DNA of 58,253 nt. Origin: an uncultured Bacilli bacterium (GTDB taxonomy: Bacteria > Bacillota_I > Bacilli_A > RF39 > UBA660). Both the position numbers and the translations under genes were made by a program. Below the pieces are notes generated by a model. The model did no database searches. It saw nothing but the letters and a program-made list of their open reading frames with translations, and had not been told where the DNA came from. The stretch spans positions 1 to 58,253 of the forward strand of contig CANRME010000001.1 in the NCBI GenBank assembly GCA_947631655.1. The letters are read 5' to 3'. Below, piece after piece: positions 20,515 through 52,277 of this stretch. Position 1 is the stretch's first letter. Each line of letters starts with the position of its first letter.

Positions 20515-20526
20515 CTTACACCTCAT

Positions 20527-31782: not shown

Positions 31783-33090
31783 TTAATTAGGTCCAAGATA
31801 AGTTATTCGTGCATAACCATCGCCCGAATGCCCATTTTCTTTTTCTCCTTCCGGACTTAACATTTCTTCATTACCAGCTATCATTAAAGTACTAGTAAAA
31901 ATTCTATTACTATAATGATAAGAACATGTTATATCAGATTTGGCAGTTTCCTCGGTACAATTATTTTTTAATTGTATGTTATCTTCAATAGAGCTTTCCG
32001 TAATAGCTACACATCCTTTATACCCAGAAATGTACGATGAACCTCCGCCACCAGCAGAAGGTGCAAATCCTGGGTCCATGCCGCTACCACCACCATAGTA
32101 GCCACCGCCACCAGCACTTGAACTGCCTTTAACAGCACTACCCCCAACGCCAAATTTACCGAATAATTCTATCGATTTTTTATCATTTGTTGCTCCACCA
32201 CTAATTTGAGAACCGCCCATCGCATTACTCTCTACAGCAGTTGTAGATCCAAATAATTGAATTCCTTCACCACCAACTAAACCTCCGCCAAAGCCGCCGG
32301 AGCCATTTCCTATGCTACTCCAATAAAAACCTCCTCCGCCACCAGCAGCGACCATAATTCGAGATTTTAGTCCTTCCAAATCATCCCAATTAGTCCCTTT
32401 TGTTAAACGAATATCTGTAGCTCCTCCGCCAGAAGCAGCATTTGTATATTCATGTTGCTTTCCGCTTCCTCCTCCATTAAAAGTCGCATCTAGAACAGCT
32501 ACAATACGTGGTGTAGTAGTTTTTCCTCCTTCACCAACATATACATATAATGTTTCCCCTTCATTTAATTTTATTATTCCCGTAGTATAAGCACCTTGTC
32601 CACCTTTAGCACCTGTTTCAGTAGTTCCTCCACTTGCACCCCAAAGTTCTATTTTATATTTTCCCGTCTTAGATACAGTAAATTTTTGTTCAGTACCAGT
32701 AAATCCAAAATTATGGATTTGGTTATTATCAACAAAATAAATGTTACATTTATCTTGATGATTAGTTGTTAAAGATGCACTCCATTCTTCTTCATCAAAA
32801 GTTATTATTGAATTTTTTTCACACTCATAAGTAGCATAGAAGTATTCACCATCTTTTGAGGGAAAAGCATCCTTTTTCTCACCATTTACATAGACTGCTA
32901 TTTGTAAATCTTTACTATAAAAAGGTTCTACAGTAGTATATATAATTTGTTTATTATATTTTATTTGATATAATGCATAACTACTTCCTATGGCAACAAC
33001 TAATAATAAAGATATTACACCTAATATTATTTTATTTTTATTTCCTTTTTGGATTTTATTTAATTCTTTTTCTGGGTTAAAAGTTCTCAT
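31783..33090 (-). CDS. Signal-anchored surface protein, paralogue 1: shared N-terminus and stalk plus an ALK/LTK-type glycine-rich domain
   Basis: MRTFNPEKELNKIQKGNKNK, then a TM helix and a two-Cys stalk. The head carries FTVSKTGKYKIELWGASGG...LYVYVGEGG...GGGATDIR...VAAGGGGG. Confidence 0.8.
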   Translation of the reverse strand: MRTFNPEKELNKIQKGNKNKIILGVISLLLVVAIGSSYALYQIKYNKQIIYTTVEPFYSKDLQIAVYVNGEKKDAFPSKDGEYFYATYECEKNSIITFDEEEWSASLTTNHQDKCNIYFVDNNQIHNFGFTGTEQKFTVSKTGKYKIELWGASGGTTETGAKGGQGAYTTGIIKLNEGETLYVYVGEGGKTTTPRIVAVLDATFNGGGSGKQHEYTNAASGGGATDIRLTKGTNWDDLEGLKSRIMVAAGGGGGFYWSSIGNGSGGFGGGLVGGEGIQLFGSTTAVESNAMGGSQISGGATNDKKSIELFGKFGVGGSAVKGSSSAGGGGYYGGGSGMDPGFAPSAGGGGSSYISGYKGCVAITESSIEDNIQLKNNCTEETAKSDITCSYHYSNRIFTSTLMIAGNEEMLSPEGEKENGHSGDGYARITYLGPN

Positions 33091-33141
33091 ATATACACAT
33101 TCCTACCTTATGATTACATTCTAACATATTTTTTGAAAAGT

Positions 33142-33208
33142 TGCACTATTTTTGCAAATTTATTTATTTTTTTGCACCATTTTTGTGTTAAAAATGCACC
33201 ATTTTTGT
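33142..33208. promoter_or_regulatory. Three phased direct repeats TGCAC(C/T)ATTTTTG in the divergent promoter region
   Basis: Repeats start at 33142, 33173 and 33195 (spacings of 31 and 22 nt). The last one abuts the -35 region of the XRE gene; TATAAT is at 33231-33236. Confidence 0.5.
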
Positions 33209-33265
33209 AAGATAATTAAAATATATACATTATAATAATTATTCTTATAAATGAGGTGAATTAGT

Positions 33266-33688
33266 TTGGAATTTAAAAAAGAAGATGAAAATTACATCTA
33301 TTCAGTAATTGGTAAAAATATAAAAAAGTATCGTAAATTAAAGGGATGGACACAAGAAAAGTTAGCCGAAGAAATTAATTATTCTTTATCTTTTATTAGT
33401 GGTATTGAATCAGAATATCACCAAACTTTTTCTCTGGGGGCTTTATGGCGCATTTCACAAATACTAGGTGTTGATTTAGCCAAATTATGTGAAGATGCCA
33501 GTAAACCTCATAATATAAAATATATAACTTATAGATGTAGTTCTTGTGGTTTAGAAAATAAAATGCCTATTGAAGTAATAAAACACTATGAAGAAATATA
33601 TAAAATAGCAGGGAACAAAAACTTACCAACTTTTAATTGTACTAACTGCGATGGCGAATTAAAACCTGCTAATCCCATGGAATTTTAA
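33266..33688 (+). CDS. XRE-family HTH regulator with a C-terminal CxxC...CxxC zinc ribbon
   Basis: KKYRKLKGWTQEKLAEEINYSLSFISGIES, plus CSSCG...CTNCDG. TTG start preceded by GAGGTG. Confidence 0.8.
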   Translation: MEFKKEDENYIYSVIGKNIKKYRKLKGWTQEKLAEEINYSLSFISGIESEYHQTFSLGALWRISQILGVDLAKLCEDASKPHNIKYITYRCSSCGLENKMPIEVIKHYEEIYKIAGNKNLPTFNCTNCDGELKPANPMEF

Positions 33689-33698
33689 TATAATAATA

Positions 33699-33721
33699 CT
33701 AGCATGATTGCTAGTTTTTTA
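33699..33721 (+). terminator. Rho-independent terminator
   Basis: ctagca-tgat-tgctag followed by T7. Confidence 0.6.
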
Positions 33722-33731
33722 TTGACCAGGC

Positions 33732-33761
33732 TTGACAAACTAAAGTTTGCAGAGATATAAT
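33732..33761 (+). promoter_or_regulatory. Sigma70-type promoter for the RhuM-Doc gene
   Basis: TTGACA, 18 nt, TATAAT. Confidence 0.55.
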
Positions 33762-33834
33762 ATATTTGCAGTGAGAAAAGTGCACGTATAAAATGAATAC
33801 TCAAAAATGAATTATAAGAAAGGAAGAAATTTTT

Positions 33835-34773
33835 ATGAAAAATGAAATTATATTATTTGAAAATCAAAATGTAAAACTAGAAGTTAATATGCAAGATGAA
33901 ACCGTATGGCTTTCATTAGACCAAATGGCTGAATTATTTGGTAGAGATAAGTCAGTTATATCAAGACACATTAAAAATGCGTTAAAAGAAGAATTAGATT
34001 CTTCAGTTGTTGCAAATTTTGCAACAACTGCAAATGATGGAAAAAATTACCAAGTTCAATACTATAATCTTGATATGATTATATCGGTTGGGTATCGTGT
34101 TAAAAGCCAAAATGGTATTATATTTAGAAAATGGGCAACTAATGTATTAAAAGATTATATGGTTAAAGGATATGCAGTTAATCAAAAAAGATTAGATTAT
34201 TTAGAAAAAACCGTTAAACTTTTAAATATTGCAAGTAGAGGTAATGAAAGATTTAGTGGAGATGAAACTAAAGAAATATTAAATGTTATTAATGAATATT
34301 CCAAAGCATTAGATTTATTAGACGATTATGACCATAGAACAATTAAAAAAGTAAAAGGTCAAAATTGTGAAAAAGTAATCACCTATGAAGAATGTATAGA
34401 AATTATTAACAAATTAAGATTTAACAATGAAAGTAGTTTATTTGCTTTAGAAAGAGATAATAATTTTAAATCAATTATAAATGATATATATGGTTCATTT
34501 GATGGGAAGGATGTTTATTCCAGTATTGAAGAAAAGAGCGCAAATTTACTTTATTTAACAGTTAAGAATCATGCTTTTATTGATGGTAATAAAAGAATTG
34601 CTGCTACTATTTTTATTTATTTCTTACAAATGAATGATATATTATATAAAGAAGGTGGTCAAAAAGTAATAGATAATAATACATTAGCATCAATTACGCT
34701 TTTAATAGCAGAGTCTAATCCCAAAGAAAAAGAAATTATGATTGATTTGATAATGAATTTCCTAAAAAATTAA
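33835..34773 (+). CDS. RhuM-family protein with a C-terminal Doc/Fic domain
   Basis: RhuM-like N-terminus (FENQNVKLEV...WLSLDQMAELFGRDKSVISRHIKN...YYNLDMIISVGYRVKS), plus the Doc-type motif HAFIDGNKRIAA. Confidence 0.85.
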   Translation: MKNEIILFENQNVKLEVNMQDETVWLSLDQMAELFGRDKSVISRHIKNALKEELDSSVVANFATTANDGKNYQVQYYNLDMIISVGYRVKSQNGIIFRKWATNVLKDYMVKGYAVNQKRLDYLEKTVKLLNIASRGNERFSGDETKEILNVINEYSKALDLLDDYDHRTIKKVKGQNCEKVITYEECIEIINKLRFNNESSLFALERDNNFKSIINDIYGSFDGKDVYSSIEEKSANLLYLTVKNHAFIDGNKRIAATIFIYFLQMNDILYKEGGQKVIDNNTLASITLLIAESNPKEKEIMIDLIMNFLKN

Positions 34774-34778
34774 TATTT

Positions 34779-34811
34779 AAAAACTATGAGTTTTTGCTCA
34801 TAGTTTTAGTT
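34779..34811. terminator. Bidirectional hairpin terminator
   Basis: Stem aaaactatgag/ctcatagtttt with loop tttttg. It overlaps the nrdG stop codon. Confidence 0.65.
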
Positions 34812-35315
34812 TTCAACAAATTCTTCTTCAAGAATTTCTATTTTTTTATTTTTTAAAGTCTTTTTAATATCGATTACTCTTTGATTAGATGAACCTTTCC
34901 ATCGTAGCATTGGATTTCTTAGTTCATCAACATACTGCCCATCAACAATAACATCAATATATTTTAGAACTTCTTTATCCATTAAATCTCTATCAACTAA
35001 GAATCCTGTCCATACCCAAATAGTTTTATTAGGATATTTTTTCTTAAATTCTTTAGCTAGTTTAGTAGTTCCTTCAATGTTAATAGGATGCATTGGTTCA
35101 CCACCTAGAATGGATAAACCTGCAATATGATTTTTATCACATAATTCTAAGACTTTATTAATTGTCTCATCGGTAAATTCTTTACCACCATTGAAATCAT
35201 GGGTTTCAGGATTAAAACAGTTTTTGCAATGAAAAGTACATCCTTGCATAAAGATACTTACTCTTACCCCTGGACCGTTAGAAATATCCATTTTTCTAAT
35301 TTTATTGTATCTCAT
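34806..35315 (-). CDS. nrdG: Anaerobic ribonucleoside-triphosphate reductase activating protein
   Basis: DISNGPGVRVSIFMQGCTFHCKNCFNPET radical SAM cluster motif; lies immediately downstream of nrdD. Confidence 0.9.
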   Translation of the reverse strand: MRYNKIRKMDISNGPGVRVSIFMQGCTFHCKNCFNPETHDFNGGKEFTDETINKVLELCDKNHIAGLSILGGEPMHPINIEGTTKLAKEFKKKYPNKTIWVWTGFLVDRDLMDKEVLKYIDVIVDGQYVDELRNPMLRWKGSSNQRVIDIKKTLKNKKIEILEEEFVEN

Positions 35316-35317
35316 AA

Positions 35318-37480
35318 TTAAACTTCTTCAGCATCTTTATTATCAAGATGAACTACTCTTTCCTTTATCTCTTGAGTTCTTCCTCTATTCCAGAAGTTAG
35401 ATCCAATATATCCACAAGTACGTCTTGCGACATTCATTTTATCGTGGTCTCTATTACCGCAGTTAGGGCAATACCATTCCATATTATCATCGATTAAGAT
35501 TTCACCAGTATAACCACATTCATGGCAGTAATCTAGTTTCGTATTTAATTCTGCATACATAATGTTATCATAAATAAATTTAATTACTTCCATAACAGAA
35601 TCTAAGTTATTAGATAGGTTTGGAGTTTCAATATAAGAAATTGCTCCTCCAGGACTTAGAGCTTGGAATTCACTTTCAAGTTTTAATTTTTCAAAGGCAT
35701 CGATTTCTTCAAATACAGGTACATGATATGAGTTGGTAATATAATCTCTATCAGTTATACCTTTTACGACTCCGAAACGGTCTCTTAAGCATTTAGCGAA
35801 TTTATAAGTAGTGGATTCAATTGGTGTACCATAAACACTGTAATCAATGTTTTCAGCTTCTTTCCATTTTTTACAAGCTTCATTAAGTTTTCTCATTACA
35901 TTAAGACCAAATTCTTTACCTTCACCATTATCAGTATGAGAATGTCCTGTCATAAATTTAACACATTCATATAAACCAGCATATCCTAATGAGATTGTTG
36001 AGTATCCACCATGTAATAAGTCATGGATTGATTCACCTTTTTTAAGTCTTGCTAGAGCACCATGTTGCCATAGTATTGGAGCAACATCACTAGTAGCTTT
36101 AGATAATCTTTTATGTCTAATTTGTAAGGCTCTATGACAAAGTTCTAATCTGTCATCTAATATTTGCCAGAAATTATCCATATCTTTATCACTAGATAGA
36201 GCCACATCTACTAAGTTAATAGTAACAACACCTTGATTAAATCTACCATAGTATTTAGGTTTACCGTTTTCATCAACGTATGGAGTTAAGAAAGAACGAC
36301 ATCCCATACATGGATAACATTGACCATTACCATTTTTATCAATTTTTAATTGTTTCATGATTTTTTCAGAAATATAATCTGGAACCATTCTCTTAGCAGT
36401 ACATTCAGCTGCTAATTTAGTTAAATAATAGTACTTACTATTTTCGTGAATGTTATCTTCTTCTAGAACGTATAGAAGTTTAGGGAAAGCAGGAGTAATA
36501 TATACACCTTTTTCATTCTTCATACCTTCAATTCTTTGTTTTAAGACTTCTTCAATAATCATCGCAAGCTCTTCTTTGTATTCATCGGTTTCACCTAAGT
36601 ACATACAAACACTTAAGAATGGTGCTTGACCATTAGTTGTGGTCATAGAATTTATTTGATATTGGAAAGTTTGAACGCCATCCGTTACTTCTTTAGCTAA
36701 ATCTTCTTTAGCATATTTTTCGCATTCTTCTTTACTTAATTTTCTCTTTTTATATTTGTCTAAATATTTTTCATAACTTGCTCTTACAAATGGAGCTAGA
36801 TGAGTTAGGGTAATAGTACATCCACCATATTGACTTGAGTTAACAGCAGTAATTAATTGCGTAGCAATTGTCATAGCAGTTAAGAATCTATGAGGTTTTT
36901 CAATCATTACCCCATTGATATTAGTACCATTTTGTAACATATCTTCTAGATTAATTAAATCACAGTTATGTAAGGCATTTTGAGCAAAATAGTCAGCATC
37001 ATGGAAATGAATAATACCTTCATCATGAGCTTTAACAATATCTTCTGGTAATAAGAATCTTCTAGTTATATCGGTACTAGTAATACCAGCTAAATAATCC
37101 CTTTGGGTAGTAACAACTTTAGCATTCTTATTAGAGTTTTCAGTATTCCAGTAATCACTTTCACCTTCAATTAATTCTTTAATTGATACATCGGTAGTAT
37201 TACTCTTTCTTACTAATTCTCTTGTATAACGATAGGTAATATATTTTTTAGCTAAAGCATATTTACCAATTGACATTAATTTCATTTCAATAATATCTTG
37301 AATATCTTCAACTAAAATTCTTTTTTTACCTAATTTTTCAATATATTTAATAATATTTCTAATTTGGGTAGAGGATGCTTGATCTTCTTCTTCTACTTCC
37401 GCATTAGCTTTCATGATAGCAGCTTCGATTTTATCTGGGCTGTAATCGACCATATGGCCATCTCTTTTAATAACTTTCAT
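35318..37480 (-). CDS. nrdD: Anaerobic (class III) ribonucleoside-triphosphate reductase
   Basis: ATP-cone N-terminus (MKVIKRDGHMVDY), C-terminal Zn site CHECG...CPNCG, and glycyl-radical motif RRTCGYIG. AAGGAG precedes the ATG at 37480. Confidence 0.95.
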   Translation of the reverse strand: MKVIKRDGHMVDYSPDKIEAAIMKANAEVEEEDQASSTQIRNIIKYIEKLGKKRILVEDIQDIIEMKLMSIGKYALAKKYITYRYTRELVRKSNTTDVSIKELIEGESDYWNTENSNKNAKVVTTQRDYLAGITSTDITRRFLLPEDIVKAHDEGIIHFHDADYFAQNALHNCDLINLEDMLQNGTNINGVMIEKPHRFLTAMTIATQLITAVNSSQYGGCTITLTHLAPFVRASYEKYLDKYKKRKLSKEECEKYAKEDLAKEVTDGVQTFQYQINSMTTTNGQAPFLSVCMYLGETDEYKEELAMIIEEVLKQRIEGMKNEKGVYITPAFPKLLYVLEEDNIHENSKYYYLTKLAAECTAKRMVPDYISEKIMKQLKIDKNGNGQCYPCMGCRSFLTPYVDENGKPKYYGRFNQGVVTINLVDVALSSDKDMDNFWQILDDRLELCHRALQIRHKRLSKATSDVAPILWQHGALARLKKGESIHDLLHGGYSTISLGYAGLYECVKFMTGHSHTDNGEGKEFGLNVMRKLNEACKKWKEAENIDYSVYGTPIESTTYKFAKCLRDRFGVVKGITDRDYITNSYHVPVFEEIDAFEKLKLESEFQALSPGGAISYIETPNLSNNLDSVMEVIKFIYDNIMYAELNTKLDYCHECGYTGEILIDDNMEWYCPNCGNRDHDKMNVARRTCGYIGSNFWNRGRTQEIKERVVHLDNKDAEEV

Positions 37481-37539
37481 AACATATACTCCTTTTCTAT
37501 AATACAAACAAAGTATAGCACAATTTAAAAAAACATATT

Positions 37540-37555
37540 TGTTGCAATTGCAACA
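37540..37555. promoter_or_regulatory. Perfect 16 bp palindrome TGTTGCAATTGCAACA in the nrdD/crp divergent region
   Basis: The sequence is its own reverse complement. It lies about 60 nt from each flanking start codon. Confidence 0.4.
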
Positions 37556-37598
37556 TTTTACAATTTATGTTAAAATTTTATTAAAGAGGTGTAAAATA

Positions 37599-38231
37599 AT
37601 GCAAGTATTCGAAAATATTAGTGAACGTAATAAAAAAATTTTACTCCGAAATTTCGAGGCAACACGCTTATTTTATCGAAAAAATTCGAATATTTTGCAA
37701 AATATTAAGAGCGACAGTTTAGTTGGCATTATCGTTTACGGTTCTTTACAAATTATTAAAACTGACTATAACGGAGATAGAAGTTTAATTGAAGAATTAG
37801 AAGAAAATGATATTTTTGGAACAATTATTTCGCATATTAGAGGGAATGAATACGAAGTAATTACGAAAGAAGATACAATGCTTTATATCTTAGATTATAA
37901 TCAAATTATGAATTTAAACCTCAATACCGATAGTTATAATCAATTTATAAAAAACTTATTACAAATTACTTCTTCAAAAATGCAGGAGAAGAATGAAAGA
38001 ATAGAGATACTTACGAAAAAAACAATTAGAAATAGATTACTAGAATACTTTAATATAGCAAGAAGTAACCACGGGTCTAGAGTAATTTATTTACCATCCA
38101 CTTTTACAGACTTAGCGGATTACTTAGCCATAGATAGGTGTGCGATGACAAGAGAGTTAAAGTATTTAAAAGAAGAAGGTTTAATTGAAATTAAGGGAAG
38201 AAGAATTACTCTATTATACGATAAAGTATGA
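37599..38231 (+). CDS. Crp/Fnr-family transcriptional regulator
   Basis: cNMP-binding-like beta-roll followed by a C-terminal HTH (FTDLADYLAIDRCAMTRELKYLKEEGLI). AAGAGG precedes the ATG at 37599. Confidence 0.8.
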   Translation: MQVFENISERNKKILLRNFEATRLFYRKNSNILQNIKSDSLVGIIVYGSLQIIKTDYNGDRSLIEELEENDIFGTIISHIRGNEYEVITKEDTMLYILDYNQIMNLNLNTDSYNQFIKNLLQITSSKMQEKNERIEILTKKTIRNRLLEYFNIARSNHGSRVIYLPSTFTDLADYLAIDRCAMTRELKYLKEEGLIEIKGRRITLLYDKV

Positions 38232-38258
38232 TATACTAGTTATGGAGGATTATGATAT

Positions 38259-38717
38259 ATGGAAAAAATAAGAGGATTTGAAATAGCTAAAGGTTGGGAA
38301 GACAAAGGTATTAACTTACCCGAAAGAAAAACAGCCCATTCAGCAGCTTATGATATTGAAGCGGCGGAAGACACTATTTTACCACCATTTAAATTAGGAG
38401 GAAAACCTACACTTATTCCAACTGGTCTTAAAGCTTATTGTCAAGATGATGAATATTACATTTTAGTAAATAGAAGTTCCGGACCTAAAAAGGGATTAGT
38501 GATGGCAAATAGTATTGGAATTATTGATGCGGATTACTATGGGAATGAAAGTAATGATGGTCATTTTTATTTTCAATATTACAATGTTTTAGACCATGAA
38601 CTAGAAATTAAAAAAGGCGACGTTATTGGTCAAGTAATATTTATGAAATTCTTAGCAGTTGATAATGATAATGCTACTGGAGTACGGACTGGTGGATTTG
38701 GGTCGACGGATAAATAG
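38259..38717 (+). CDS. dut: dUTP diphosphatase
   Basis: AAYDIEA, GIIDADYYG, and RTGGFGSTDK at the C-terminus. Confidence 0.85.
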   Translation: MEKIRGFEIAKGWEDKGINLPERKTAHSAAYDIEAAEDTILPPFKLGGKPTLIPTGLKAYCQDDEYYILVNRSSGPKKGLVMANSIGIIDADYYGNESNDGHFYFQYYNVLDHELEIKKGDVIGQVIFMKFLAVDNDNATGVRTGGFGSTDK

Positions 38718-38725
38718 GAGAAAAC

Positions 38726-39370
38726 ATGAAAAAAATAATTATCTTGTGTATAACTTTAATTTTATTAACAGGTTGTGGTAGTAAAAACTTAGATATTGAT
38801 TTTGATATAGAAGGAAATGAAAGTGCTATAAATTATGGCGATAAGTTACCAGTAGTAGCAATGGAAATAGAGGGTTATGGCGCAATTGTGATGGAATTAT
38901 ATCCGGAATATGCACCGAATACCGTAAATAACTTTATTTCTTTAGTAAAAAGTGGGTTTTATGATAATAATACCTTCCACCGTTTAGTACCGGGTTTTGT
39001 TTTACAAGGTGGTGACCCAGAAGGAACTGGTAGTGGGGGACCTGGATACTCTATTTACGGGGAATTTTTAAATAATAAATACTATAAAAATACTTTAAAA
39101 CACGAAAAAGGTGTTGTTTCAATGGCCAGAAGTAGTTCCCCTAATAGTGCCGGAAGCCAGTTCTTTATCTGCTTAGATAGAGCCTCAAATTTAGATGATG
39201 CTTATGCGGCTTTTGGAAAAGTTATTGAAGGCTTCGATATTATTGAAAAAATTGAGAAAACGGAAAAAGTCGCTGATAGCGAATCTGGAAAACTTGAAAA
39301 AAATTTAACCATTAAAAAAGCTTTAGTGGATACTAAAGGTGTCGATTACCCAGAACCAGAAAAAAATTAA
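38726..39370 (+). CDS. Lipoprotein peptidyl-prolyl cis-trans isomerase (cyclophilin type)
   Basis: Lipobox LLTGC, plus FHRLVPGFVLQGGDPEGTGSGGPGYSI and SQFFI. Confidence 0.9.
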   Translation: MKKIIILCITLILLTGCGSKNLDIDFDIEGNESAINYGDKLPVVAMEIEGYGAIVMELYPEYAPNTVNNFISLVKSGFYDNNTFHRLVPGFVLQGGDPEGTGSGGPGYSIYGEFLNNKYYKNTLKHEKGVVSMARSSSPNSAGSQFFICLDRASNLDDAYAAFGKVIEGFDIIEKIEKTEKVADSESGKLEKNLTIKKALVDTKGVDYPEPEKN

Positions 39371-39395
39371 AATACTCGTTAAAGAGTATTTTTTG
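39369..39395. terminator. Bidirectional hairpin terminator
   Basis: Stem aaaatactc/gagtatttt, followed by a T-run. Confidence 0.5.
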
Positions 39396-43682: not shown

Positions 43683-43753
43683 TCTTTCTATTTAAGTATA
43701 TCAAAGATAGAAAAAAAATACCACTTATAAGTGATATTAATTTATACTAAATA

Positions 43754-45526
43754 TTAAGCTGCTGTTAAGACTGAACGGAATGAGTAAGAATGAAATGCAC
43801 CATAGCCGCCGCTACCGAAGGCAAATATACCAGCTCCACTATTTAGGTTGTACATACCTCCACGAAGGAACCAACTTACACGAGGCTCAGGTAGTACCAA
43901 ATGGTCTGCATTCCACACACCATTGCCTTTGCCATATTTTTCTAAAATTTCTTTTGTTGCATCGCCAAAATGGGTTTTTTCTTGAACCAACCTATTATCG
44001 TTATAAGTATATAAATCATAATATTTATAATCTAATAAAGAATCTTCTTGACTTGGCGTAGATGTAATAAATCCGCCATCTGCTTCTTGATATAATCCTA
44101 TCGTGTCTTCTCCACCCATTAATCCCATTACATATTCCCATGTTCCACCTGACGTATCATATATGCCATACATATTTCCTGTGGTACTGGCTTTTACGCC
44201 ATTTTCATTCCATCTTCTTCCGGCAGGACAAATAGCTGGAGACTCTTGATTATTTGTATTCCACTCTACTTCATCATTTACATTTGTCCCTACACAGCCG
44301 GTTACTGTCCCTCCATACTGATAAGTTCCTTCTGTTCCTGGTCCTTGAGCGGTATTATTTTTCCATACTTCACATTCTTCAAAATTCATATCACCAATAT
44401 TACAAGTATTCTCATCTTTATATATACCATATACACTTTGCGTTAAGTATGCCATGGCTCCCCATTCCATGTTTTTCATCATATGGGTATCTACTTCACC
44501 ATGTTTTAAATTATATTTATTTCCTTCATCAGTTAACTTTTGTTCTGCATTAAATGCCATGAATACAGTATTGTTAACCACACTTGTTTTATTTGGTAGT
44601 ATTGTTATTTCACCTATTTTATTTACATTGAATCCAATTACATCTTTTGCATCACTTGGTTCAAATTTTCCTACCCATATGCCTTTTAATTCTGTTTCTC
44701 CAAAGGTAAATGCGGGATGGGTATACCATTTACCAATTTCTATTCCTGGACAATTTTCCGTTACTGTTCCTGCACTAATTTCATATGTACACTTGAAATC
44801 TCCAGTTGATTCATCATCTTTCTCAAATGCTATTTCGATTATTTGTTTTGGAGTATCAGTAGTTCCTAAACTAAATATTTTGTATTTATATCGTGGTATC
44901 CACACATACATTTGAAGGATTTCTTCCATTGGGATTTTCTTACCTACTATCTCTGGATTTATATTATTGTTTTCATCAAAATATTTTGCTGTTACTCCTT
45001 CTTTGGTATTATCTACTAATACTGCATTTCCCCATCTATGGTCTTGATAGTTATACCAATCACTATCTACATCTGCTACATATACATTTCCTGCTTCATC
45101 ATATGTTACTGGTATCATACCTTGATATAGTTCTGGTGGGTTTGGTAAGTTTCCTGTTATAAAGTATACATTACATTTATCTTGTTTCGTTATTTTTAAA
45201 GAGAGTTCCCATTTCGTATTATCAAATACTCCACTACTTCCATTTTCACATGTTATATGCGAAAATATTTTTCCACTTTCTTTATCTGGAAAAGTTTCTG
45301 ATGTGGTATCTTTTTCTCCATCTACATACAAAGATATTTGAATATCTTTACTATAGAATTTATCTACCGTAGTATATATAATTCTTTTATTATATTTTAT
45401 TTGATATAAAGCATAACTACTTCCTATGGCTATAACTAATAACAAAGCTATTACACCTAATATTATTTTATTTTTATTTCCTTTTTGAATTTTATTTAAT
45501 TCTTTTTCTGGATTAAATCTACGCAT
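43754..45526 (-). CDS. Signal-anchored surface protein, paralogue 2: shared N-terminus and stalk plus a large distinct head
   Basis: MRRFNPEKELNKIQKGNKNK, then a TM helix and a two-Cys stalk. The head ends WFLRGGMYNLNSGAGIFAF...SFRSVLTAA. AAGGAGTG precedes the ATG at 45526. Confidence 0.8.
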   Translation of the reverse strand: MRRFNPEKELNKIQKGNKNKIILGVIALLLVIAIGSSYALYQIKYNKRIIYTTVDKFYSKDIQISLYVDGEKDTTSETFPDKESGKIFSHITCENGSSGVFDNTKWELSLKITKQDKCNVYFITGNLPNPPELYQGMIPVTYDEAGNVYVADVDSDWYNYQDHRWGNAVLVDNTKEGVTAKYFDENNNINPEIVGKKIPMEEILQMYVWIPRYKYKIFSLGTTDTPKQIIEIAFEKDDESTGDFKCTYEISAGTVTENCPGIEIGKWYTHPAFTFGETELKGIWVGKFEPSDAKDVIGFNVNKIGEITILPNKTSVVNNTVFMAFNAEQKLTDEGNKYNLKHGEVDTHMMKNMEWGAMAYLTQSVYGIYKDENTCNIGDMNFEECEVWKNNTAQGPGTEGTYQYGGTVTGCVGTNVNDEVEWNTNNQESPAICPAGRRWNENGVKASTTGNMYGIYDTSGGTWEYVMGLMGGEDTIGLYQEADGGFITSTPSQEDSLLDYKYYDLYTYNDNRLVQEKTHFGDATKEILEKYGKGNGVWNADHLVLPEPRVSWFLRGGMYNLNSGAGIFAFGSGGYGAFHSYSFRSVLTAA

Positions 45527-45569
45527 ATATTTCACTCCTTTAAAGTTTACTCATATTATAATTTAGCCA

Positions 45570-45612
45570 ACATTTTGTTGGTATTGTTGTTTTTATTATA
45601 CCAACAAAATGT
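45570..45612. promoter_or_regulatory. Perfect 14 bp inverted repeat (acattttgttggta / taccaacaaaatgt) with a 15 bp spacer
   Basis: Arms at 45570-45583 and 45599-45612, between the divergent starts of paralogue 2 and its HTH gene. Confidence 0.5.
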
Positions 45613-45634
45613 ATGCTTTTCAAGAGGTGTTTTT

Positions 45635-45853
45635 ATGAGAATTATTGCGAATGATTATAGAGCAAATGAAGTATTTAAAATGATTAGAGAATATACAGGA
45701 AAAACTCAAGAAGAGTTTGGACACCAAATAAAAAGAAGTAAGACAGCTATTCAATATTATGAATATGGTCAAAGAAACTTTGACTTTGAATTACTTCTCG
45801 AGATATGTAAAAAGGAAAACCTAATTGTTAAAATAGAAAGTAAGAATAAATAA
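45635..45853 (+). CDS. Small HTH (XRE-like) regulator
   Basis: MIREYTGKTQEEFGHQIKRSKTAIQYYEYGQR. AGAGG precedes the ATG at 45635. Confidence 0.65.
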   Translation: MRIIANDYRANEVFKMIREYTGKTQEEFGHQIKRSKTAIQYYEYGQRNFDFELLLEICKKENLIVKIESKNK

Positions 45854-45943
45854 TTTCTTATGTAAAAATAATGTATAAAATATATATGTTTAAAAAATAT
45901 AGTTATTTCTAATGGTATAATTATACTAAGGAGGAATAGTAAT

Positions 45944-46177
45944 ATGAATGAATCTTTTTCACCAATACAAGAAATTAGTCAAATATATAATCCGTTAATT
46001 GCTAGTATTACTACAGCATATATAAATCGACCTGAAAATTTAAAACTTTTAAGTCAAGAAGAATTTATTTTATATTTTTGCGAGGAATATCAAAAAGTTA
46101 ATAACGCAGCATTGAAAGTTAGAGCAACGATGGATGTAAATGGAAATTATAGTTTAGATAATGGACCAAAAAGATAA
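45944..46177 (+). CDS. Hypothetical 77 aa protein
   Basis: AAGGAGG upstream. No family recognised. Confidence 0.45.
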   Translation: MNESFSPIQEISQIYNPLIASITTAYINRPENLKLLSQEEFILYFCEEYQKVNNAALKVRATMDVNGNYSLDNGPKR

Positions 46178-46205
46178 AAACTTCAGAAATCTGAAGTTTT
46201 ATTTT
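46177..46205. terminator. Bidirectional hairpin terminator
   Basis: Perfect 10 bp stem aaaacttcag/ctgaagtttt with loop aaat. It overlaps the gap stop codon. Confidence 0.65.
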
Positions 46206-47215
46206 GTCATTAAATATTTAGCAGTACGAAGCATTTGAGCAGTATACCCTACTTCGTTATCATACCATGCTACTACTTTAACCATTTGTTTACCATCTTT
46301 TTCAACAACATTAGTAAGAAGTAAATCTACTAACGCCCCACATTTTTTACCAATTATATCACTTGATACTATTGGATCATAGGTTGCTTTGATTGTTTCG
46401 TTTTGGTTATTTAAGAATAAGTTATTTATTTCTTCAACAGTAGTTGGTCTTTTTAGTTCTAGAGCTAAATCGACAACGGAACCATCACTTACAGGAACTC
46501 TAAATGCTCCTCCATCTAGGCAACCTTTTAAACTAGGTATTACACTTCCGATAGCAGAAGCTGCTCCAGTAGATGCTGGAATAATATTGGCTGCACAAGC
46601 TCTACCACGTCTTGCTTTAATCCCTTTTTTATGTGGAATATCTAAGGTTGCTTGGTCATTAGTATAAGCATGAATGGTGGTCATAAAGCCTTTTTCAATA
46701 CCGATATTTCTTTCTAAAATATCAAGTACGGGAGCTAGACAGTTAGTAGTACAAGAAGCTGCCGAAATAATAGTTTCGCTACCATCTAATATTTCATGGT
46801 TAACATTATAAACAATAGTCTTTAAATCGCCTTTTGCTGGGGCAGAAATAATAACTTTTTTAGCGCCCGCCATAATATGAGCCATGGCACTATCTTTGTC
46901 AGTAAAGTGACCAGTGCACTCTAATACAACATCTACTCCTAAATCACGCCAAGGTAATTTGCTTGGGTCTTGTTCCGCAAAAACTGGGATTTTTTTAATT
47001 CCTTTAATTACTAGGAAGTTATCTTCAAAAGTAATATCTTCTTCATGAAATGTACGGTGATTAGTATCATATTTTAATAAATATGCTAAAGTCTCCGCAT
47101 CTGTTAAATCATTAATTGCTACAACATCAAAATCTGTTGTGGTAATCATACTTCTAAAAGCTAACCTTCCTATTCTTCCAAATCCATTAATTGCTACTTT
47201 AATCATTTTTTTCAT
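46199..47215 (-). CDS. gap: Glyceraldehyde-3-phosphate dehydrogenase
   Basis: INGFGRIGR, ASCTTNCLAP, and WYDNE. Confidence 0.95.
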   Translation of the reverse strand: MKKMIKVAINGFGRIGRLAFRSMITTTDFDVVAINDLTDAETLAYLLKYDTNHRTFHEEDITFEDNFLVIKGIKKIPVFAEQDPSKLPWRDLGVDVVLECTGHFTDKDSAMAHIMAGAKKVIISAPAKGDLKTIVYNVNHEILDGSETIISAASCTTNCLAPVLDILERNIGIEKGFMTTIHAYTNDQATLDIPHKKGIKARRGRACAANIIPASTGAASAIGSVIPSLKGCLDGGAFRVPVSDGSVVDLALELKRPTTVEEINNLFLNNQNETIKATYDPIVSSDIIGKKCGALVDLLLTNVVEKDGKQMVKVVAWYDNEVGYTAQMLRTAKYLMTK

Positions 47216-47228
47216 TCCTTTCTTCTAT

Positions 47229-48869
47229 TTAATCAGTAAAATCACTTTTACCGATAAATTCTCTAATAATACTATCTCCACTAATATAATCACTGGCTAT
47301 GGGGAAGAAGTTATGTAAAAAATCTAATAATCTTTTAGCTTCTTCATAATAAGGTGATGATATGGTAACTGTGTATAATAGAGGTTCTGCAAATACTTTT
47401 AAGACTCCCAGTTCATAAGCAAGACTGGTATTAATTATCATATCGGCATTATTTAAGTAAGGGAAAATATATTTTTCTTCTCCTACTCTTACTTGTTGCC
47501 AGTTTTTAATAGTAGTGGCGACATCATACCCTCTAGTTCTTTCATCTCTAATTATCCTTCTAATAAGTCGTAAATCAACCGTAGATACATAATTTTGATA
47601 ATCAATATTTATAGGATAAAAAGGACTTAAATAAATTTTATATTTTAAATCATTTTCAATACCTGGAAGTAATGCATCATTTAAACAATGTAAGCCTTCC
47701 ATAATTATTATACCATTAGGTGGAAGTTTTAGAGGTTTGTTATTATATTCTTTTTTACCAGTAATAAAGTTAAACTCCGGTGGATTAATTTCTTCACCAG
47801 CTAATAATTTCTTTAAATCACTAGTTAGTAACTCCGTATCAATGGCTCTTATATTTTCATAATCTCTATTACCATTTTCATCTAATGGGGTATCTACTCT
47901 TTCTTTAAAATAATTATCAACACTTATAGTTAATGGCTTATAACCTTTAGCTAATAAGTTAAAAGCAATTCTTTTGGAAGTCGTAGTTTTACCAGAACTA
48001 GATGGTCCCGCTAGTAAAATAAATTTTGCTTCTTTCTTTAAAGCGTTATTAACTGCTTCATCAATATCATTACTATATTTTAATTCGCTTATTTTAACTA
48101 AACTTCCTACTTCTCCATTAGCAACCTTGGTATTTAAGTCTTTAACAAAAGGAATATCTAGATTCTTCGCCCAGTTTATTGATTCTTTATAACACTTAAT
48201 TATCTTTTTATAATGAATATAACTTGGGGTTCCATTACCATTTATATATGGCGGAAATAATAAAACTAATTCTTTATCATTTAACATTACTAAGTCATAA
48301 TTAGCAAGACTTTTAGTACTATGCGGCATCTCGGTATAATAATAATTTAAATAATTATCTAATTTATATAACGTTACCGCACTACTAGGAACAATACTAA
48401 TATTACACGCTTTAGCTAAGTCTTTTTTTTCAAAATAAGTAAAAGCACTTTTTTTATCAACAACAATTCTATTTATAGATAAATTATCTTTAATTATTTT
48501 ATCCATTTCTTCTTTTAAGTTAGTTATTACCTCATCAGTTATTTCAAAATTTTGAGAACTTATATGAATACCTCTATCAATAGAGTGGTCATATTTTATT
48601 AAAGCTTTAGGATACTTCCTTTGGAAGGCAAGGTCTAAAACCATTTTAAGACCAGCTTGATACATTTTATAGCCAGATATATCTTCTCTATTTAAGAAAG
48701 TTACTTGTCCTCCTTTATAAGCTTTAGAAGATAAAGGCATAATTTCATTGTCTATTTTAATACCTAAATAATTATTTTCTTTTAAAGTATCTTCTAATAA
48801 TTCATAATAAGTTTTAGTTATAGAAGTACTTATTTTTTCATTATTTGGTAATATTAAAAATTTCTCCAT
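47229..48869 (-). CDS. Uridine-kinase/PRK-family nucleoside kinase with a long N-terminal (TGS/ThrRS-like) extension
   Basis: P-loop LAGPSSSGKTTTSKRIA in the C-terminal half, within a 546 aa architecture. Confidence 0.7.
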   Translation of the reverse strand: MEKFLILPNNEKISTSITKTYYELLEDTLKENNYLGIKIDNEIMPLSSKAYKGGQVTFLNREDISGYKMYQAGLKMVLDLAFQRKYPKALIKYDHSIDRGIHISSQNFEITDEVITNLKEEMDKIIKDNLSINRIVVDKKSAFTYFEKKDLAKACNISIVPSSAVTLYKLDNYLNYYYTEMPHSTKSLANYDLVMLNDKELVLLFPPYINGNGTPSYIHYKKIIKCYKESINWAKNLDIPFVKDLNTKVANGEVGSLVKISELKYSNDIDEAVNNALKKEAKFILLAGPSSSGKTTTSKRIAFNLLAKGYKPLTISVDNYFKERVDTPLDENGNRDYENIRAIDTELLTSDLKKLLAGEEINPPEFNFITGKKEYNNKPLKLPPNGIIIMEGLHCLNDALLPGIENDLKYKIYLSPFYPINIDYQNYVSTVDLRLIRRIIRDERTRGYDVATTIKNWQQVRVGEEKYIFPYLNNADMIINTSLAYELGVLKVFAEPLLYTVTISSPYYEEAKRLLDFLHNFFPIASDYISGDSIIREFIGKSDFTD

Positions 48870-48993
48870 GTTATCACCTTTTTACTCTCCTATTATATAT
48901 TGTATCAAATAAATACTTTTTTGTCGCATTTTTTTGTAAATATTTTTGAATAAAATTGTTTTTTTACACTTATTATAGTATTAGGTGAAAAAG

Positions 48994-49563
48994 ATGAATA
49001 TTATTCCAACAGTAATAGAAAAATCTAGTAATAGAGAATATGCTTATGATTTGTATTCTAGATTATTAAATGATCGTATAATTTTTTTATCAGGAGAGAT
49101 AACGGATGATACAGCAAACATTGTGGTAAGTGAATTATTATATTTAGATGCCATAAACAACAGAGACATCTCTTTATATATCAATAGTCCAGGCGGAAGT
49201 ATTACAGCAGGGATGGCGATATATGACACCATGAATTATGTTAAGAGTAAGGTTAAGACGATAGTAGTAGGAATGGCAGCTTCGATGGCGGCGGTGATTG
49301 CTTGCTCGGGAGAAAAAGGTGGAAGATACATTCTACCTAATGGAGAAGTAATGATTCACCAACCTTTAGGAGGTGTTCAAGGTCAAGCAACCGAAATTAA
49401 AATTGTGGCCGAACGAATTATTAGTCTAAGAAAAAAACTCAACAATATTATTGCTGAGAAGACAGGTCAAAAATTAGAAAAAATTGAAGTAGATACGGAA
49501 CGTGATAATTACTTATCTAGTAAGGAAGCGCTAGATTATGGATTAGTTGATAAAATACTTTAA
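48994..49563 (+). CDS. clpP: ATP-dependent Clp protease proteolytic subunit
   Basis: [23 protein letters not shown] (Ser), and HQPLGG (His). Confidence 0.95.
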
Positions 49564-50489
49564 GAATTTTTATTTTGATGTTTATTAACTAAGTCTTTTA
49601 CTTTTCTAAAATAGTGATTAATTCCCGATTTACCTATAGGTTTCCCAGTTTCGGAAGAAATGATTTCAGCGAGTTCTTGCAAAGAACTTTCAGGATATTT
49701 TTCACGATAGTAGATAGCATCTTTAGTTTTATCATCTAATAAATTAATTAAGTCATGTTCTTTTAAATAATTAATATCATCTAATTGAGATAAGCCGGCT
49801 TTAATGACTTTCTCTTGATTAGCTATTTCACAATTATTTAAGCGATTTACCATATTTTTATGGTCACGATAAATTCTTATATCTTCAAAGAAGAATAAAC
49901 TATTAGTAGCTCCGAAAAGCTTTAACATATCACTAATCATTTCAGCACTTTTAATATATAAAACATAGTTATTTCCTCTTTTAATAACTTTACCAATAAT
50001 ATTAAATTCTTTTAAGATAGAATTAATATATAAAGCATCTTTTTTATGAGGAACACTAAATTCTAAATGATAACCACTAGTTTGAGGATTAGTAATACTA
50101 GCACTAGCTAAGAATACACCTTTTAAATAAGCTATTTTATCTTCTCTAGTTACTAAGAAAAATTCATTATTATCATTTACTTTATTATTGTGGATGATAT
50201 TTAAGGTTTCTAAAATATTTGAAATATTATGAGTTATTTCTAAAATATATATTTGTTTAATACGAAATCTTCTTTGATTTCTAACTATTATTTGAGCTTT
50301 AATACCAAAAACTATTTTAATAAGAGAATAGATTCTTCTAGCAACGCTAGCATTTTCTATTGTTAAAGTGATTTTGTCTTTAGTAATAATACCATCATAT
50401 TTAATAAAAGAAGATAATTCACTGGTAGCAGAGATAATATCAATATCTTGTTTACTTATTTCTTCTTTAACACTTGTTGTAAAAGTCAT
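49560..50489 (-). CDS. whiA: DNA-binding protein WhiA
   Basis: [20 protein letters not shown]-like halves ([12 protein letters not shown]), and a C-terminal HTH ([10 protein letters not shown]...[11 protein letters not shown]). Confidence 0.9.
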
Positions 50490-50543
50490 AGTAACCACCT
50501 AATATTTATTATAACAAAAACTTAGGTATTATCACAAACTATT

Positions 50544-51866
50544 TTAATTAACATTTATAACATATGGATTATCATATGTTCCATCTCCGCTTGTTATTTT
50601 TGTATCATGAGTTAGATATAGAGTGGGATAAGCACCCGCTGTCCATTCTTTGATAGAATAACCTTGGCTTGCCCAACCAACATAATGACTATGAATACTT
50701 AAAACAGCATCAGGATACTTCGAATTCGGCATCATGAACCACAATCCATAGCCAGGTAACCAATCAGCTTCCCAGCAGTGGACAGAATTAAATGTTGGAT
50801 CAGCCCAACGATACAAAGTTAAATCTAAACATTGAGCTCTCATTTGTTCTCCTCCACCTACATTAAATCCAAAATCGCTTGGATACATTAAGCCAATAAA
50901 TCCATTCCAGGTTGGTTTATAACCTTCTAGAACCACTTCTCCTCTTTCATGTGTATAAAATTCCGCTGCAGTTATATCTGAAGTATGCCATCCTCCTATA
51001 TTCCATTTTATTTTTTCAATAATTTGTTGTGTAGTTTTTGTCAGGGGCTTATAATTTGTGTCCTTATAACTATCTATCCAACTGCCATCATCACCTTCTG
51101 TTAAATAATTATTATTTAAATATATTTGTAAACTTGCAGTCTCCCAGTTACTTATGTTGTTAATATCCCATTTTAAAATCCCAACACGATTTTCTCTTAT
51201 TATTTTAACTAAGTTTTGTTTTTCATATGTTGTTTCTCCCTCTTCAGAAACTGATACTACTTTTTCTATGTTTTTAAATGATCCAATGATTCTCCATCTT
51301 TCACATGTTTCTTCTGTTGGTTTACTGTAATCATCACAGTTAAACCAGATATAATTTGTGGGATTTGTTCCAATGTATCTGCCATTTTGATCGGGATCAT
51401 CAAAAGCTAAAATATTTGTAAATTTTTCTCCTTCTTCTAATAAACATTCAGACATTTCTTTTCCTTCACATGATTTCATATGAAACGGACTTTTTACAAA
51501 AAATACAGTACATTTATCTGGTCCTTTTATGCTAGCATTTAAATTCCAAGTATCGGTATCCCACCTATCATTTATTATATTACCATTTTCACATTCGATA
51601 TGGGAATATACATATCCTTCTTCTTTAGTAGGAAATTTATTTGTTGATTTTTCTTGGTCATCTAATTTAACTGATAAAATAATATCTTTACTAAAGAATG
51701 GTTCTACAGTAGTATAAATAATTCTTTTATTATATTTTATTTGATATAAAGCATAACTACTTCCTATGGCTACTATTAACAGTAATAAACCTACACCTAA
51801 TATTACTTTATTTTTATTTCCTTTTTGAATTTTATTTAACTCTTTTTCCGGATTAAACATTCTCAT
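50544..51866 (-). CDS. Signal-anchored surface protein, paralogue 3: shared N-terminus and stalk plus a third distinct head
   Basis: MRMFNPEKELNKIQKGNKNK, then a TM helix and a two-Cys stalk. The head ends WFMMPNS...AYPTLYLTHDTKITSGDGTYDNPYVI. RBS GAGAGGTG. Confidence 0.8.
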   Translation of the reverse strand: MRMFNPEKELNKIQKGNKNKVILGVGLLLLIVAIGSSYALYQIKYNKRIIYTTVEPFFSKDIILSVKLDDQEKSTNKFPTKEEGYVYSHIECENGNIINDRWDTDTWNLNASIKGPDKCTVFFVKSPFHMKSCEGKEMSECLLEEGEKFTNILAFDDPDQNGRYIGTNPTNYIWFNCDDYSKPTEETCERWRIIGSFKNIEKVVSVSEEGETTYEKQNLVKIIRENRVGILKWDINNISNWETASLQIYLNNNYLTEGDDGSWIDSYKDTNYKPLTKTTQQIIEKIKWNIGGWHTSDITAAEFYTHERGEVVLEGYKPTWNGFIGLMYPSDFGFNVGGGEQMRAQCLDLTLYRWADPTFNSVHCWEADWLPGYGLWFMMPNSKYPDAVLSIHSHYVGWASQGYSIKEWTAGAYPTLYLTHDTKITSGDGTYDNPYVINVN

Positions 51867-51920
51867 TACTTACACCTCTCATATAATAATAGTATAACAT
51901 TAATTTCATAAAATTACCAC

Positions 51921-51946
51921 TATATTTAGATATTTTTCTAAATATA
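51921..51946. promoter_or_regulatory. Perfect 10 bp inverted repeat tatatttaga / tctaaatata (6 bp spacer)
   Basis: Lies between the divergent starts of paralogue 3 and its XRE gene. A half-site-like tatttttagata recurs near 51966. Confidence 0.45.
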
Positions 51947-52004
51947 ATCAATAGTAAATGTTCTACTATTTTTAGATAATTATATATATAAAAGAGGTGG
52001 ATAC

Positions 52005-52277
52005 ATGATTACTGATAAAGAATTGGAGGAAATTTTTACAAGAATTTCTAAAAATATTAAATATTATCGTCGTTATAATAAATCGAAATATGCAGATGAA
52101 TACGGAAGAATTAGTCAAGAAAGACTAGCAGAACTTTGTGGAGTAAGTCAATCGCTAATAGCTAATATCGAAAGTGTTAAAGTAAAACAAACATTTTCTA
52201 TTACTGTAATAGCATCCATTGCTAAGGTTTTAGGTGTGCCTTTTGAAGAATTTTTTAAAGAACATGACTTTAATTAA
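52005..52277 (+). CDS. XRE-family HTH regulator
   Basis: ISQERLAELCGVSQSLIANIES...QTFSITVIASIAKVLGV, similar to the 33266 regulator. RBS AAGAGGTGG. Confidence 0.8.
   Translation: MITDKELEEIFTRISKNIKYYRRYNKSKYADEYGRISQERLAELCGVSQSLIANIESVKVKQTFSITVIASIAKVLGVPFEEFFKEHDFN

Follow-up and report, generated by a model that had tools for sequence, protein, structure and literature searches.

We analysed a stretch of 58,253 base pairs (bp) of DNA with ~27% G+C, the complete contig CANRME010000001.1 of an uncultured Bacilli bacterium (assembly GCA_947631655.1); "the window" below means this whole stretch. It carries three copies of a two-gene module in which a gene for a putative exported protein stands divergently to a small gene encoding a helix-turn-helix (HTH) protein, with a control region between them. 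An earlier note on this DNA had described this architecture, and the open reading frames (ORFs), tblastn, a profile hidden Markov model (HMM) and HTH_3 matches bear it out. We call the putative exported proteins paralogues A, B and C and their neighbours R1, R2 and R3. With lengths in amino acids (aa) or bp, the parts of the three modules are as follows.

31783-33090, minus strand: paralogue A, 435 aa, called from its ORF and N-terminal similarity to B and C; leader at residues 1-41, N-terminal segment at 42-60, beta stalk domain at 61-122, head at ~124-432 (nucleotides (nt) 31795-32721).
33091-33265: control region A, 175 bp, with direct repeats TGCAC(C/T)ATTTTTG at 33142, 33173 and 33195.
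33266-33688, plus strand: R1, 140 aa, XRE/HTH_3 with a C-terminal CxxC...CxxC zinc-ribbon-like tail (Pfam HTH_3, 7.2e-13).
43754-45526, minus strand: paralogue B, 590 aa from the ATG, called from its ORF and N-terminal similarity; leader, stalk, then a head of the FGE-type C-type-lectin fold at residues ~125-590.
45527-45634: control region B, 108 bp, with a 20-nt inverted repeat (arms 45565-45584 and 45598-45617, core CCAACA(A/T)3TGT).
45635-45853, plus strand: R2, 72 aa, a short XRE-type HTH protein (HTH_31 and HTH_3 just under the cut-off, and orthology).
50544-51866, minus strand: paralogue C, 440 aa, called from its ORF and N-terminal similarity; leader, stalk, then a head predicted to be DUF6273-like (C-type-lectin-like) at residues ~125-440.
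51867-52004: control region C, 138 bp, with direct repeats C(C/T)ACTAT(A/T)TTTAGAT at 51917 and 51963.
52005-52277, plus strand: R3, 90 aa, XRE/HTH_3 (Pfam HTH_3, 2.6e-9).

When the first 135 aa were compared with the window by tblastn, A, B and C aligned over a common N-terminus of ~124 aa at 59–64% identity (E 1e-37 to 1e-50), and past residue ~126 tblastn gave no alignment among them. A profile HMM run over all six frames found exactly three family copies in the window, in agreement with tblastn. For paralogue B an alternative start, a GTG at 45535, would give 593 aa. The motifs previously quoted for the N-terminus are present in the sequences, and so are the two cysteines said to be conserved: across 146 family sequences aligned to the profile, the first occurs in all 144 that cover it and the second in 131 of 138. 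The accompanying claim of a conserved stalk stands as far as the shared N-terminus goes, but conservation within it is uneven, with 76–95% identity among A, B and C over residues 1–60 and 26–45% over the beta domain that follows.

Counted as cluster representatives at 50% identity in an exhaustive HMMER search with the N-terminal profile, the family comprises at least 439 representatives at E<=1e-3 and 94 at E<=1e-10, with lengths from 44 to 1046 aa. As the earlier note had supposed, the N-terminus falls outside the named families: leader and stalk have no match in Pfam, NCBIfam, PHROGs or PADLOC, nor in Pfam when 102 relatives were searched, and the stalk has no relative in the PDB either by sequence profile or by Foldseek of its model. 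Weak Pfam matches to DUF5843, C1-set and BclA_C (E 0.04–0.07) were treated as noise. A word-index protein search returned only 4–15 short fragments, none of them named, the leader patterns picked up no relatives among IMG/VR and JGI metagenome contigs, and protein A had no exact match in the gene-position index.

The anatomy of the leader was read from the 146 aligned sequences. It opens with a basic n-region of ~20 residues carrying the motif K/R-x-F-N-P-x-K-E-L-x-K (among sequences covering each position, F in 84 of 87, N in 80 of 87 and L in 87 of 101), followed by a hydrophobic core of ~15 residues. In ~90% of the 146 sequences this core is closed by [ST]-[YF]-[AS]-x-[YF]: profile position 37 is S or T in 127, position 38 Y or F in 139, position 39 A or S in 133 and position 41 Y or F in 138. 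Small residues at -3 and -1 with an aromatic at P2' make up the cleavage-site pattern of the SipW-dependent class, which the family shares. The TasA site, T-W-A|A-F, has the same pattern, and PMC10269814 reports that, owing to the P2' aromatic, TasA is a poor substrate for LepB and is instead cut by the archaeal-type peptidase SipW. The proteins had earlier been called signal-anchored; the hydrophobic stretch exists, but it is doubtful as an anchor, as a signal-peptidase-like site ends it throughout the family. We prefer cleavage because of this small-x-small motif with aromatic P2' at the end of the helix, and think it fairly probable that a signal peptidase cuts at the predicted site ...SSYA|LYQ...; by analogy with TasA, the enzyme is possibly of the SipW type. 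Among the relatives, the leader of P0057 scores 18.7 bits against TIGR04088 (cognate_SipW), whose cut-off is 19, and in P0115 a TasA-like leader is followed by a camelysin (Peptidase_M73) domain and then by the stalk domain. Peptidase_M73 membership itself was rejected for A, B and C, which lack the domain; it was found in only 1 of the 102 relatives. After the predicted site comes a conserved segment of ~20 residues, of the form ...(I/V)(I/V)x(T/G)xV(G/E)xF...D. No cysteine occurs in the first 60 residues, and the C-termini (...RITYLGPN, ...FRSVLTAA and ...PYVINVN) all lack a hydrophobic tail. A sortase-anchored protein and a lipoprotein were ruled out, there being no LPXTG-type signal and no lipobox cysteine, and so was a type IV pilin or pseudopilin, as no Pfam or NCBIfam pilin matched and the conserved motif lies after, not before, the hydrophobic stretch. 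The mature proteins may be either held at the surface or released.

The stalk is a domain of ~60 residues at about residues 61–124, in which P77, C90, W103, C115 and F119 are invariant or nearly so; it is probably closed by a disulfide. An AlphaFold2 model of leader plus stalk, built from a 43-sequence alignment (pLDDT 80), has a helix at residues 6–49, a low-confidence stretch at 50–57 and a five-stranded beta domain at 62–124, and the model of full-length paralogue C repeats this layout of helix, low-confidence stretch and five strands (pLDDT 78, pTM 0.77). Some relatives (P0056, P0070, P0120, P0046 and P0076) have two to five stalk domains, or stalk domains in alternation with glycine-rich ones, which argues that the stalk is an autonomous spacer domain. 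The ~20-residue segment that precedes the stalk is found at the N-terminus only and is absent before internal stalk repeats.

Beyond the stalk, the heads had been described as completely different from one another and as possible binding modules such as lectins. They are indeed unrelated by sequence, but those of B and C fall in one fold class, the C-type-lectin-like, and the matches of all three heads agree with a binding or lectin-type role. Head A is PF12810 (ALK_LTK_GRD), at 172.6 bits against a cut-off of 24.5 and over profile positions 6–243 of 243; it also matches the phage families PHROG 1589, 5811 and 7388 (E 1e-43 to 1e-36), which have no assigned function. Protein A had no match among PDB sequences, and a literature search on bacterial PF12810 proteins gave nothing usable. 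Head B has no match in Pfam, FGE-sulfatase included. Profile A4, made from 14 B-type proteins, matches PDB entry 5vf4 (E 5.9e-5) with the HPAF and N-x-EW-aromatic motifs aligned; this entry is TaqVP, the variable protein of a Thermus aquaticus diversity-generating retroelement (DGR), which has the FGE-type C-type-lectin (CLec) fold (bioRxiv 10.1101/432187). Head C has no Pfam match at E<=1, PF19789 included, and no PDB sequence match, and the model of full-length paralogue C has no fold match in the PDB. Against BFVD, Foldseek paired that model with several phage DUF6273 proteins (E 1e-6 to 1e-4, probability 1.0); for six named DUF6273 phage proteins the values are E 4e-5 to 1.4e-2 and probability 0.95–1.0. 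DUF6273 is C-type-lectin-like and a frequent DGR target in phage receptor-binding proteins (RBPs; PMC10743442, PMC11792537). We therefore assign head C to a DUF6273-type lectin-like fold provisionally, on the strength of a predicted model and of a sub-threshold match in a relative. All three head types are thus binding modules with phage or DGR relatives.

Pfam searches over the 102 relatives found ALK_LTK_GRD in 16, Gp10_C in seven and PT-HINT in two, as well as BspA-type leucine-rich repeats, DUF6273 and others, and one head type can occur with different leader subtypes. Next to a family module in another genome (L002, 3713-5023) lies a 436-aa protein with a TasA-type leader, ...LGVSYAFFPT..., and a C-terminus, ...RPVINIRKNVTVTGDGTLQNPYNI, that resembles the DUF6273-type heads of the family, so heads of this type are also deployed behind a classical SipW-type leader. 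Association with a DGR was rejected, as no part of the window repeats the 3' 450 nt of A, B or C; no reverse transcriptase was noticed in the ORF lists of the window.

The regulators are XRE proteins of two subtypes. R1 and R3 share 39% identity, and R2 belongs to the other subtype. Against PF01381, with its cut-off of 23 bits, R1 scores 48.8, R3 37.4 and R2 20.7; R2 also matches PADLOC HTH_VI (3.4e-6), and an R2 orthologue is annotated, weakly, as HTH_3/HTH_31. We moved the start of R2 from a TTG at 45575 to 45635 (MRIIANDYR) because its 93%-identical orthologue in the syntenic relative described below is 72 aa long, which makes 45635 the most likely start.

Each control region carries its own repeat motif, found nowhere else in the window. 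That of region A has three matches in the window, all within the region, against 0.01 expected, and an extended -10-like element, TGTTAGAAT in minus-strand reading, lies upstream of gene A. In region B a strong promoter-like site, TTGAAA-17-TGnTATAAT, runs from 45623 to 45595 on the minus strand toward gene B, with an 11/12 match and an extended -10. One arm of the inverted repeat fills the spacer of this site, and the other is located downstream of a second promoter-like site, which points into R2. Region C contains, besides its direct repeats, a palindrome, TATATTTAGA/TCTAAATATA, and an extended -10-like element, TGTTATACT on the minus strand, upstream of gene C. Such a geometry is suggestive, and only suggestive, of repression combined with autoregulation. 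Control regions A and C are homologous by alignment, as are R1 and R3, which implies that whole modules were duplicated and that operator and regulator then diverged together.

The pairing of regulator and family gene recurs in other genomes, again in line with the earlier note. Scanning one genome per species with the A1 profile gave eight loci in three uncultured Bacilli gut metagenome-assembled genomes (MAGs), with at most four loci per MAG and 23–30% G+C. Together with two loci of L009 and the locus L014, this makes 11 loci outside the window, seven of which have a small divergent HTH gene immediately upstream. Regulators beside family genes in three other MAGs (L001, L002 and L008) are 41–53% identical to R1. 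For regulators of the R1/R3 type, followed through five genomes, the sole constant partner is the divergent family gene.

A close relative allowed us to compare rates. Around modules B and C the window shares synteny with L009 (GCA_947623845.1); module A is absent at the corresponding place in L009. At the amino-acid level the flanking genes are 96% (GAPDH), 95% (ClpP), 92% (FAD oxidoreductase), 80% (WhiA) and 73% (a PRK-domain protein) identical between the two genomes. Within the modules R2 and R3 are both 93% identical, paralogue B is 58% and paralogue C 39%. The control regions are likewise conserved, at 92% for B and ~95% for C, against ~80% for flanking DNA. Over their first 60 residues the window paralogues are 85–90% identical to one another, but paralogue C and its positional orthologue share only 43% identity there, from which we infer that the leader-coding 5' ends are homogenised within a genome. 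In agreement with this, A, B and C are singletons when clustered at 90% identity (the R3 cluster has seven members, on many contigs), and assemblies break in the leader. Specifically, six metagenome contigs with an identical R2 or R3 (L015–L020) stop short of any head, within or just before the first 40–60 codons of the family gene, so the shared leader acts as an assembly-breaking repeat; this would explain why metagenome assemblies end at family genes, and the copy number in those genomes is probably under-counted.

Taken together, we favour, with slightly better than even confidence, the view that these loci encode locally repressed, fast-diversifying exported lectin-like proteins with one XRE regulator per copy. 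The three loci would be paralogous copies of a single two-gene module that belongs to a lineage of uncultured low-GC gut Bacilli. The leader would direct export, and signal peptidase would free the conserved ~20-residue N-terminal segment; the five-stranded beta domain would then serve as a spacer carrying an interchangeable ligand-binding head. Each small XRE protein would bind the repeated operators private to its own intergenic region, and as these overlap the promoter of the exported gene and lie in the leader of the regulator gene, each head could be repressed, and its regulator autoregulated, independently of the others. The binding proteins diverge far faster than regulators, operators and housekeeping neighbours, probably under strong diversifying pressure, and recombination would keep the 5' ends of the leaders near-identical. 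The divergence pattern fits exposure to a changing target outside the cell, for example glycans (host or microbial), phage or antibody.

Several observations weigh against this explanation, or against parts of it. As to export, the window proteins have no match to TIGR04088, a six-frame translation of the window contains no S26-type motif that would mark a signal peptidase gene, and the proteins may be uncleaved type II anchors. Retention at the surface has no obvious means, as A, B and C have no LPXTG signal, lipobox or known wall-binding domain. As to the heads, the Foldseek matches of paralogue C have TM-scores on the query of only 0.25–0.30, the model being multi-domain, and relative P0126, which has the same head as C, reaches 21.5 bits against PF19789, below the cut-off of 23.5. 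As to regulation, the promoters and operators are predictions, called by consensus or as repeats, and XRE control of the neighbouring gene is a reading of their geometry together with co-conservation. Four of the 11 related loci have no regulator, the distant member P0089 lies behind an unrelated gene, and a RhuM/Fic gene that lies 3' of R1 on the same strand may be a target of R1 instead of gene A or as well as it.

This gene and the other features near the modules are listed here.

33835-34773: RhuM/Fic-DOC gene adjoining module A (PADLOC PDC-S23, 1e-121).
43710-43735, minus strand: AT-rich hairpin CACTTATAAGTG followed by eight T, 3' of gene B; terminator-like, and below the G+C threshold of the scan.
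45944-46177, plus strand: small ORF of 77 aa, 3' of R2.
52290-53282: DUF1016/YhcG PDDEXK nuclease gene adjoining module C (PADLOC PDC-S02, 9e-125).

Both the RhuM/Fic and the DUF1016 gene are single-gene candidate phage-defence genes; in L009 the DUF1016 gene stands beside module B, not module C. The 77-aa ORF is 76% identical to a 78-aa gene at the same position in L009, is also present in three of the truncated contigs (L018–L020) and has no family match; one may speculate that it works with R2 or against it, in the way that SinI acts on SinR. No terminator-like site comparable to the one behind gene B was called for genes A and C, which have same-strand housekeeping genes 45–55 nt downstream.

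Of the other explanations, one that we consider unlikely is that the proteins are uncleaved type II membrane sensors, whose heads sense a ligand and whose cytoplasmic tails signal to the adjacent XRE regulator in the manner of RsgI and SigI. In its favour, the pairing of a regulator with a single-pass protein recurs in several paralogous copies whose extracellular binding domains vary, the tail of 20 residues is conserved, and the model shows a continuous helix through the hydrophobic segment. The tails of A, B and C, however, are so alike (95% identity) that they cannot give pair specificity to regulators that share at most 39%. The genes are moreover divergent and not co-transcribed, many family members have no regulator as a neighbour, and the small-x-small motif with its aromatic P2' at the end of the helix favours cleavage. 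An RsgI-type anti-sigma factor was itself considered and rejected: no anti-sigma or RsgI_N domain was found by Pfam, and the partner is a divergent XRE gene.

An improbable but more far-reaching alternative is that leader and stalk form a TasA-like device for export and assembly. The freed 20-residue segment would act as donor strand for the stalk of the next subunit, building filaments, or else wall-tethered chains, that display the swappable heads, with each gene under an autoregulated, perhaps bistable, XRE switch. In Bacillus, TasA is controlled by the XRE-type proteins SinR and SlrR, which we count in favour of fibres, and R1 weakly matches the SlrR model (E 5.7e-9, far below the cut-off). 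Further points on this side are that the segment after the predicted site (residues ~42–59) is conserved and yet of low confidence in both models, and that it is missing from the internal stalk repeats of multi-stalk relatives. The cleavage motif resembles that of TasA (PMC10269814), and both TasA (PMC9674648) and archaeal bundling pili (PMC9245690) are known to assemble by donor strand. Against fibres, the window proteins lack the Peptidase_M73/TasA fold, no sipW- or tapA-like genes are adjacent, Foldseek found no structural match for the stalk model in the PDB, and a large globular head on every subunit would be unusual.

It is also rather improbable that the proteins are secreted antagonistic or phage-related effectors (lectin-like bacteriocins, relatives of polymorphic toxins, or anti-phage proteins that mask receptors) with the XRE genes as control proteins of the kind found in mobile or defence islets. 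The phage or DGR relatives of the heads would suit such a role, as would the PT-HINT pretoxin domain in two relatives and Gp10_C in seven. Two of the modules adjoin the candidate defence genes (PDC-S23 and PDC-S02), and in PADLOC the regulators resemble restriction-modification "control proteins" and capH. Neither a known defence system nor a polymorphic toxin held up as an identification of A, B and C themselves: they have no PADLOC match and no toxin or PT-HINT domain, and the genes downstream are housekeeping genes with no small immunity-like genes among them. In two genomes, furthermore, the modules are syntenic residents of the chromosome between housekeeping genes, the leader patterns found no member of the family in IMG/VR viral contigs, and the DUF1016 gene moves between genomes independently of R3 and C. 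Finally, that the XRE genes control themselves or other neighbours and merely share variable islets with the family genes has little chance of being right. In its favour, XRE genes are common and frequently found in accessory islets, the RhuM/Fic gene and the 77-aa ORF follow R1 and R2 on their own strands and the regulator is missing at four of 11 loci. Against it, R1/R3-type regulators have no constant partner other than the divergent family gene, conservation is higher in the intergenic DNA than in the coding flanks, and operator arms overlap the promoter facing the family gene.

Returning to locally repressed exported binding proteins, XRE repressors, lectin-fold heads and the glycine-rich domain are familiar; undescribed are the leader-and-stalk family, the recurrence of private regulators beside its genes and the marked difference in rates. 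Current libraries leave blank a sizeable family of gut Bacilli, built from a leader and a small beta domain, probably closed by a disulfide, with swappable heads. The occurrence of phage-type heads in a bacterium suggests that bacteria and phages draw on one pool of binding modules. With conserved regulators and operators next to divergent partners, and with operators private to each copy, the modules would make a clean system for studying the switching of individual lectins, and exported proteins of these uncultured organisms may be predictable from the leader motif. If the proteins did form filaments, single cells or whole populations could exchange their adhesive or antigenic coat with no rearrangement of the DNA.

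Elsewhere in the window we observed the following.

236-877: protein with a signal peptide, a thioredoxin-like G-C-D-F-C motif and, at its C-terminus, a membrane segment; judged from the sequence alone, perhaps an extracytoplasmic thiol-disulfide oxidoreductase, in keeping with a disulfide in the stalk.
971-1690: 239-aa protein with an N-terminal HTH_3 (1.2e-13), a hydrophobic segment and a C-terminal domain of ~130 aa, distantly like R2 (E 2e-7); it looks like a membrane-tethered XRE regulator.
2452-2973 and 29516-30283: two products with a common N-terminal pattern, ...VYVQ(K/R)xD(I/L)xY(I/L)xQ(S/T)...E(E/T)IE(F/Y)FK(K/N)L(D/K)WIVDY(N/R)K; the second has no Pfam match and has a homologue 3' of the FAD oxidoreductase gene in L009 as well.
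~6500-22400, minus strand: long cluster with glycosyltransferase-like and NAD-dependent sugar epimerase/dehydratase-like proteins and three CxxxCxxC radical-SAM-type proteins; judged from the translations, probably a cluster for a surface glycan or a modified product.
27897-29439: secreted protein with a pectate-lyase-like adhesive domain (PF20585) and SPETS before a C-terminal hydrophobic tail, adjoined by a convergent sortase gene (PF04203); probably a sortase and its substrate, the sorting motif being non-canonical.

Among known systems, TasA/CalY of Bacillus resembles the modules in the [ST]-aromatic-A-x-aromatic end of the leader, in Gram-positive export, in having XRE/HTH_3 regulators and, in one relative, through the fusion of camelysin and stalk. 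It differs in that the window proteins have neither the Peptidase_M73 fold nor a TIGR04088 match and no sipW or tapA nearby, while the family has a long n-region with its own motif, large variable heads, and a regulator and target that are divergent neighbours in multiple copies. The RsgI/SigI pairs of cellulolytic clostridia likewise come as multiple pairs of a regulator and a single-pass protein with a constant N-terminus and a variable extracellular part, there carbohydrate-binding. Here, by contrast, an XRE protein takes the place of the sigma factor, an anti-sigma domain is missing, regulator and partner are transcribed divergently, the tail cannot specify its partner, and a probable cleavage site is present.

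On the side of the heads, the closest parallels are DGR and phage receptor-binding proteins (Mtd, TvpA, TaqVP and the DUF6273 "tentaclins"): head B shares homology with TaqVP, phage DUF6273 proteins match the model of head C, and the two folds are both ligand-binding scaffolds in which high sequence variation is tolerated. Unlike these, no reverse transcriptase was noticed in the window and it has no template or variable repeat, the genes are chromosomal and lie amid housekeeping genes, and the family has a bacterial leader and stalk in place of phage tail-attachment domains. As far as is visible here, family diversity stems from divergence and module exchange, not from mutagenic retrohoming. 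The eukaryotic ALK/LTK glycine-rich domain occurs in receptor tyrosine kinases and binds ALKAL cytokines. Head A matches it (PF12810) over its full length, and the relatives that carry the domain, 16 of 102, include some with tandem copies; in these proteins, unlike the receptors, it is a stand-alone head on a predicted bacterial exported protein. Finally, the Vlp and Vsa lipoproteins of mycoplasmas are variable surface families with homogenised 5' ends, and they share with the present family a near-identical leader-coding 5' region, divergent mature parts and a fast-evolving exposed portion. In contrast to them, the family has no lipobox cysteine, no invertible promoters or homopolymer tracts were seen, and each copy is instead accompanied by a dedicated regulator.

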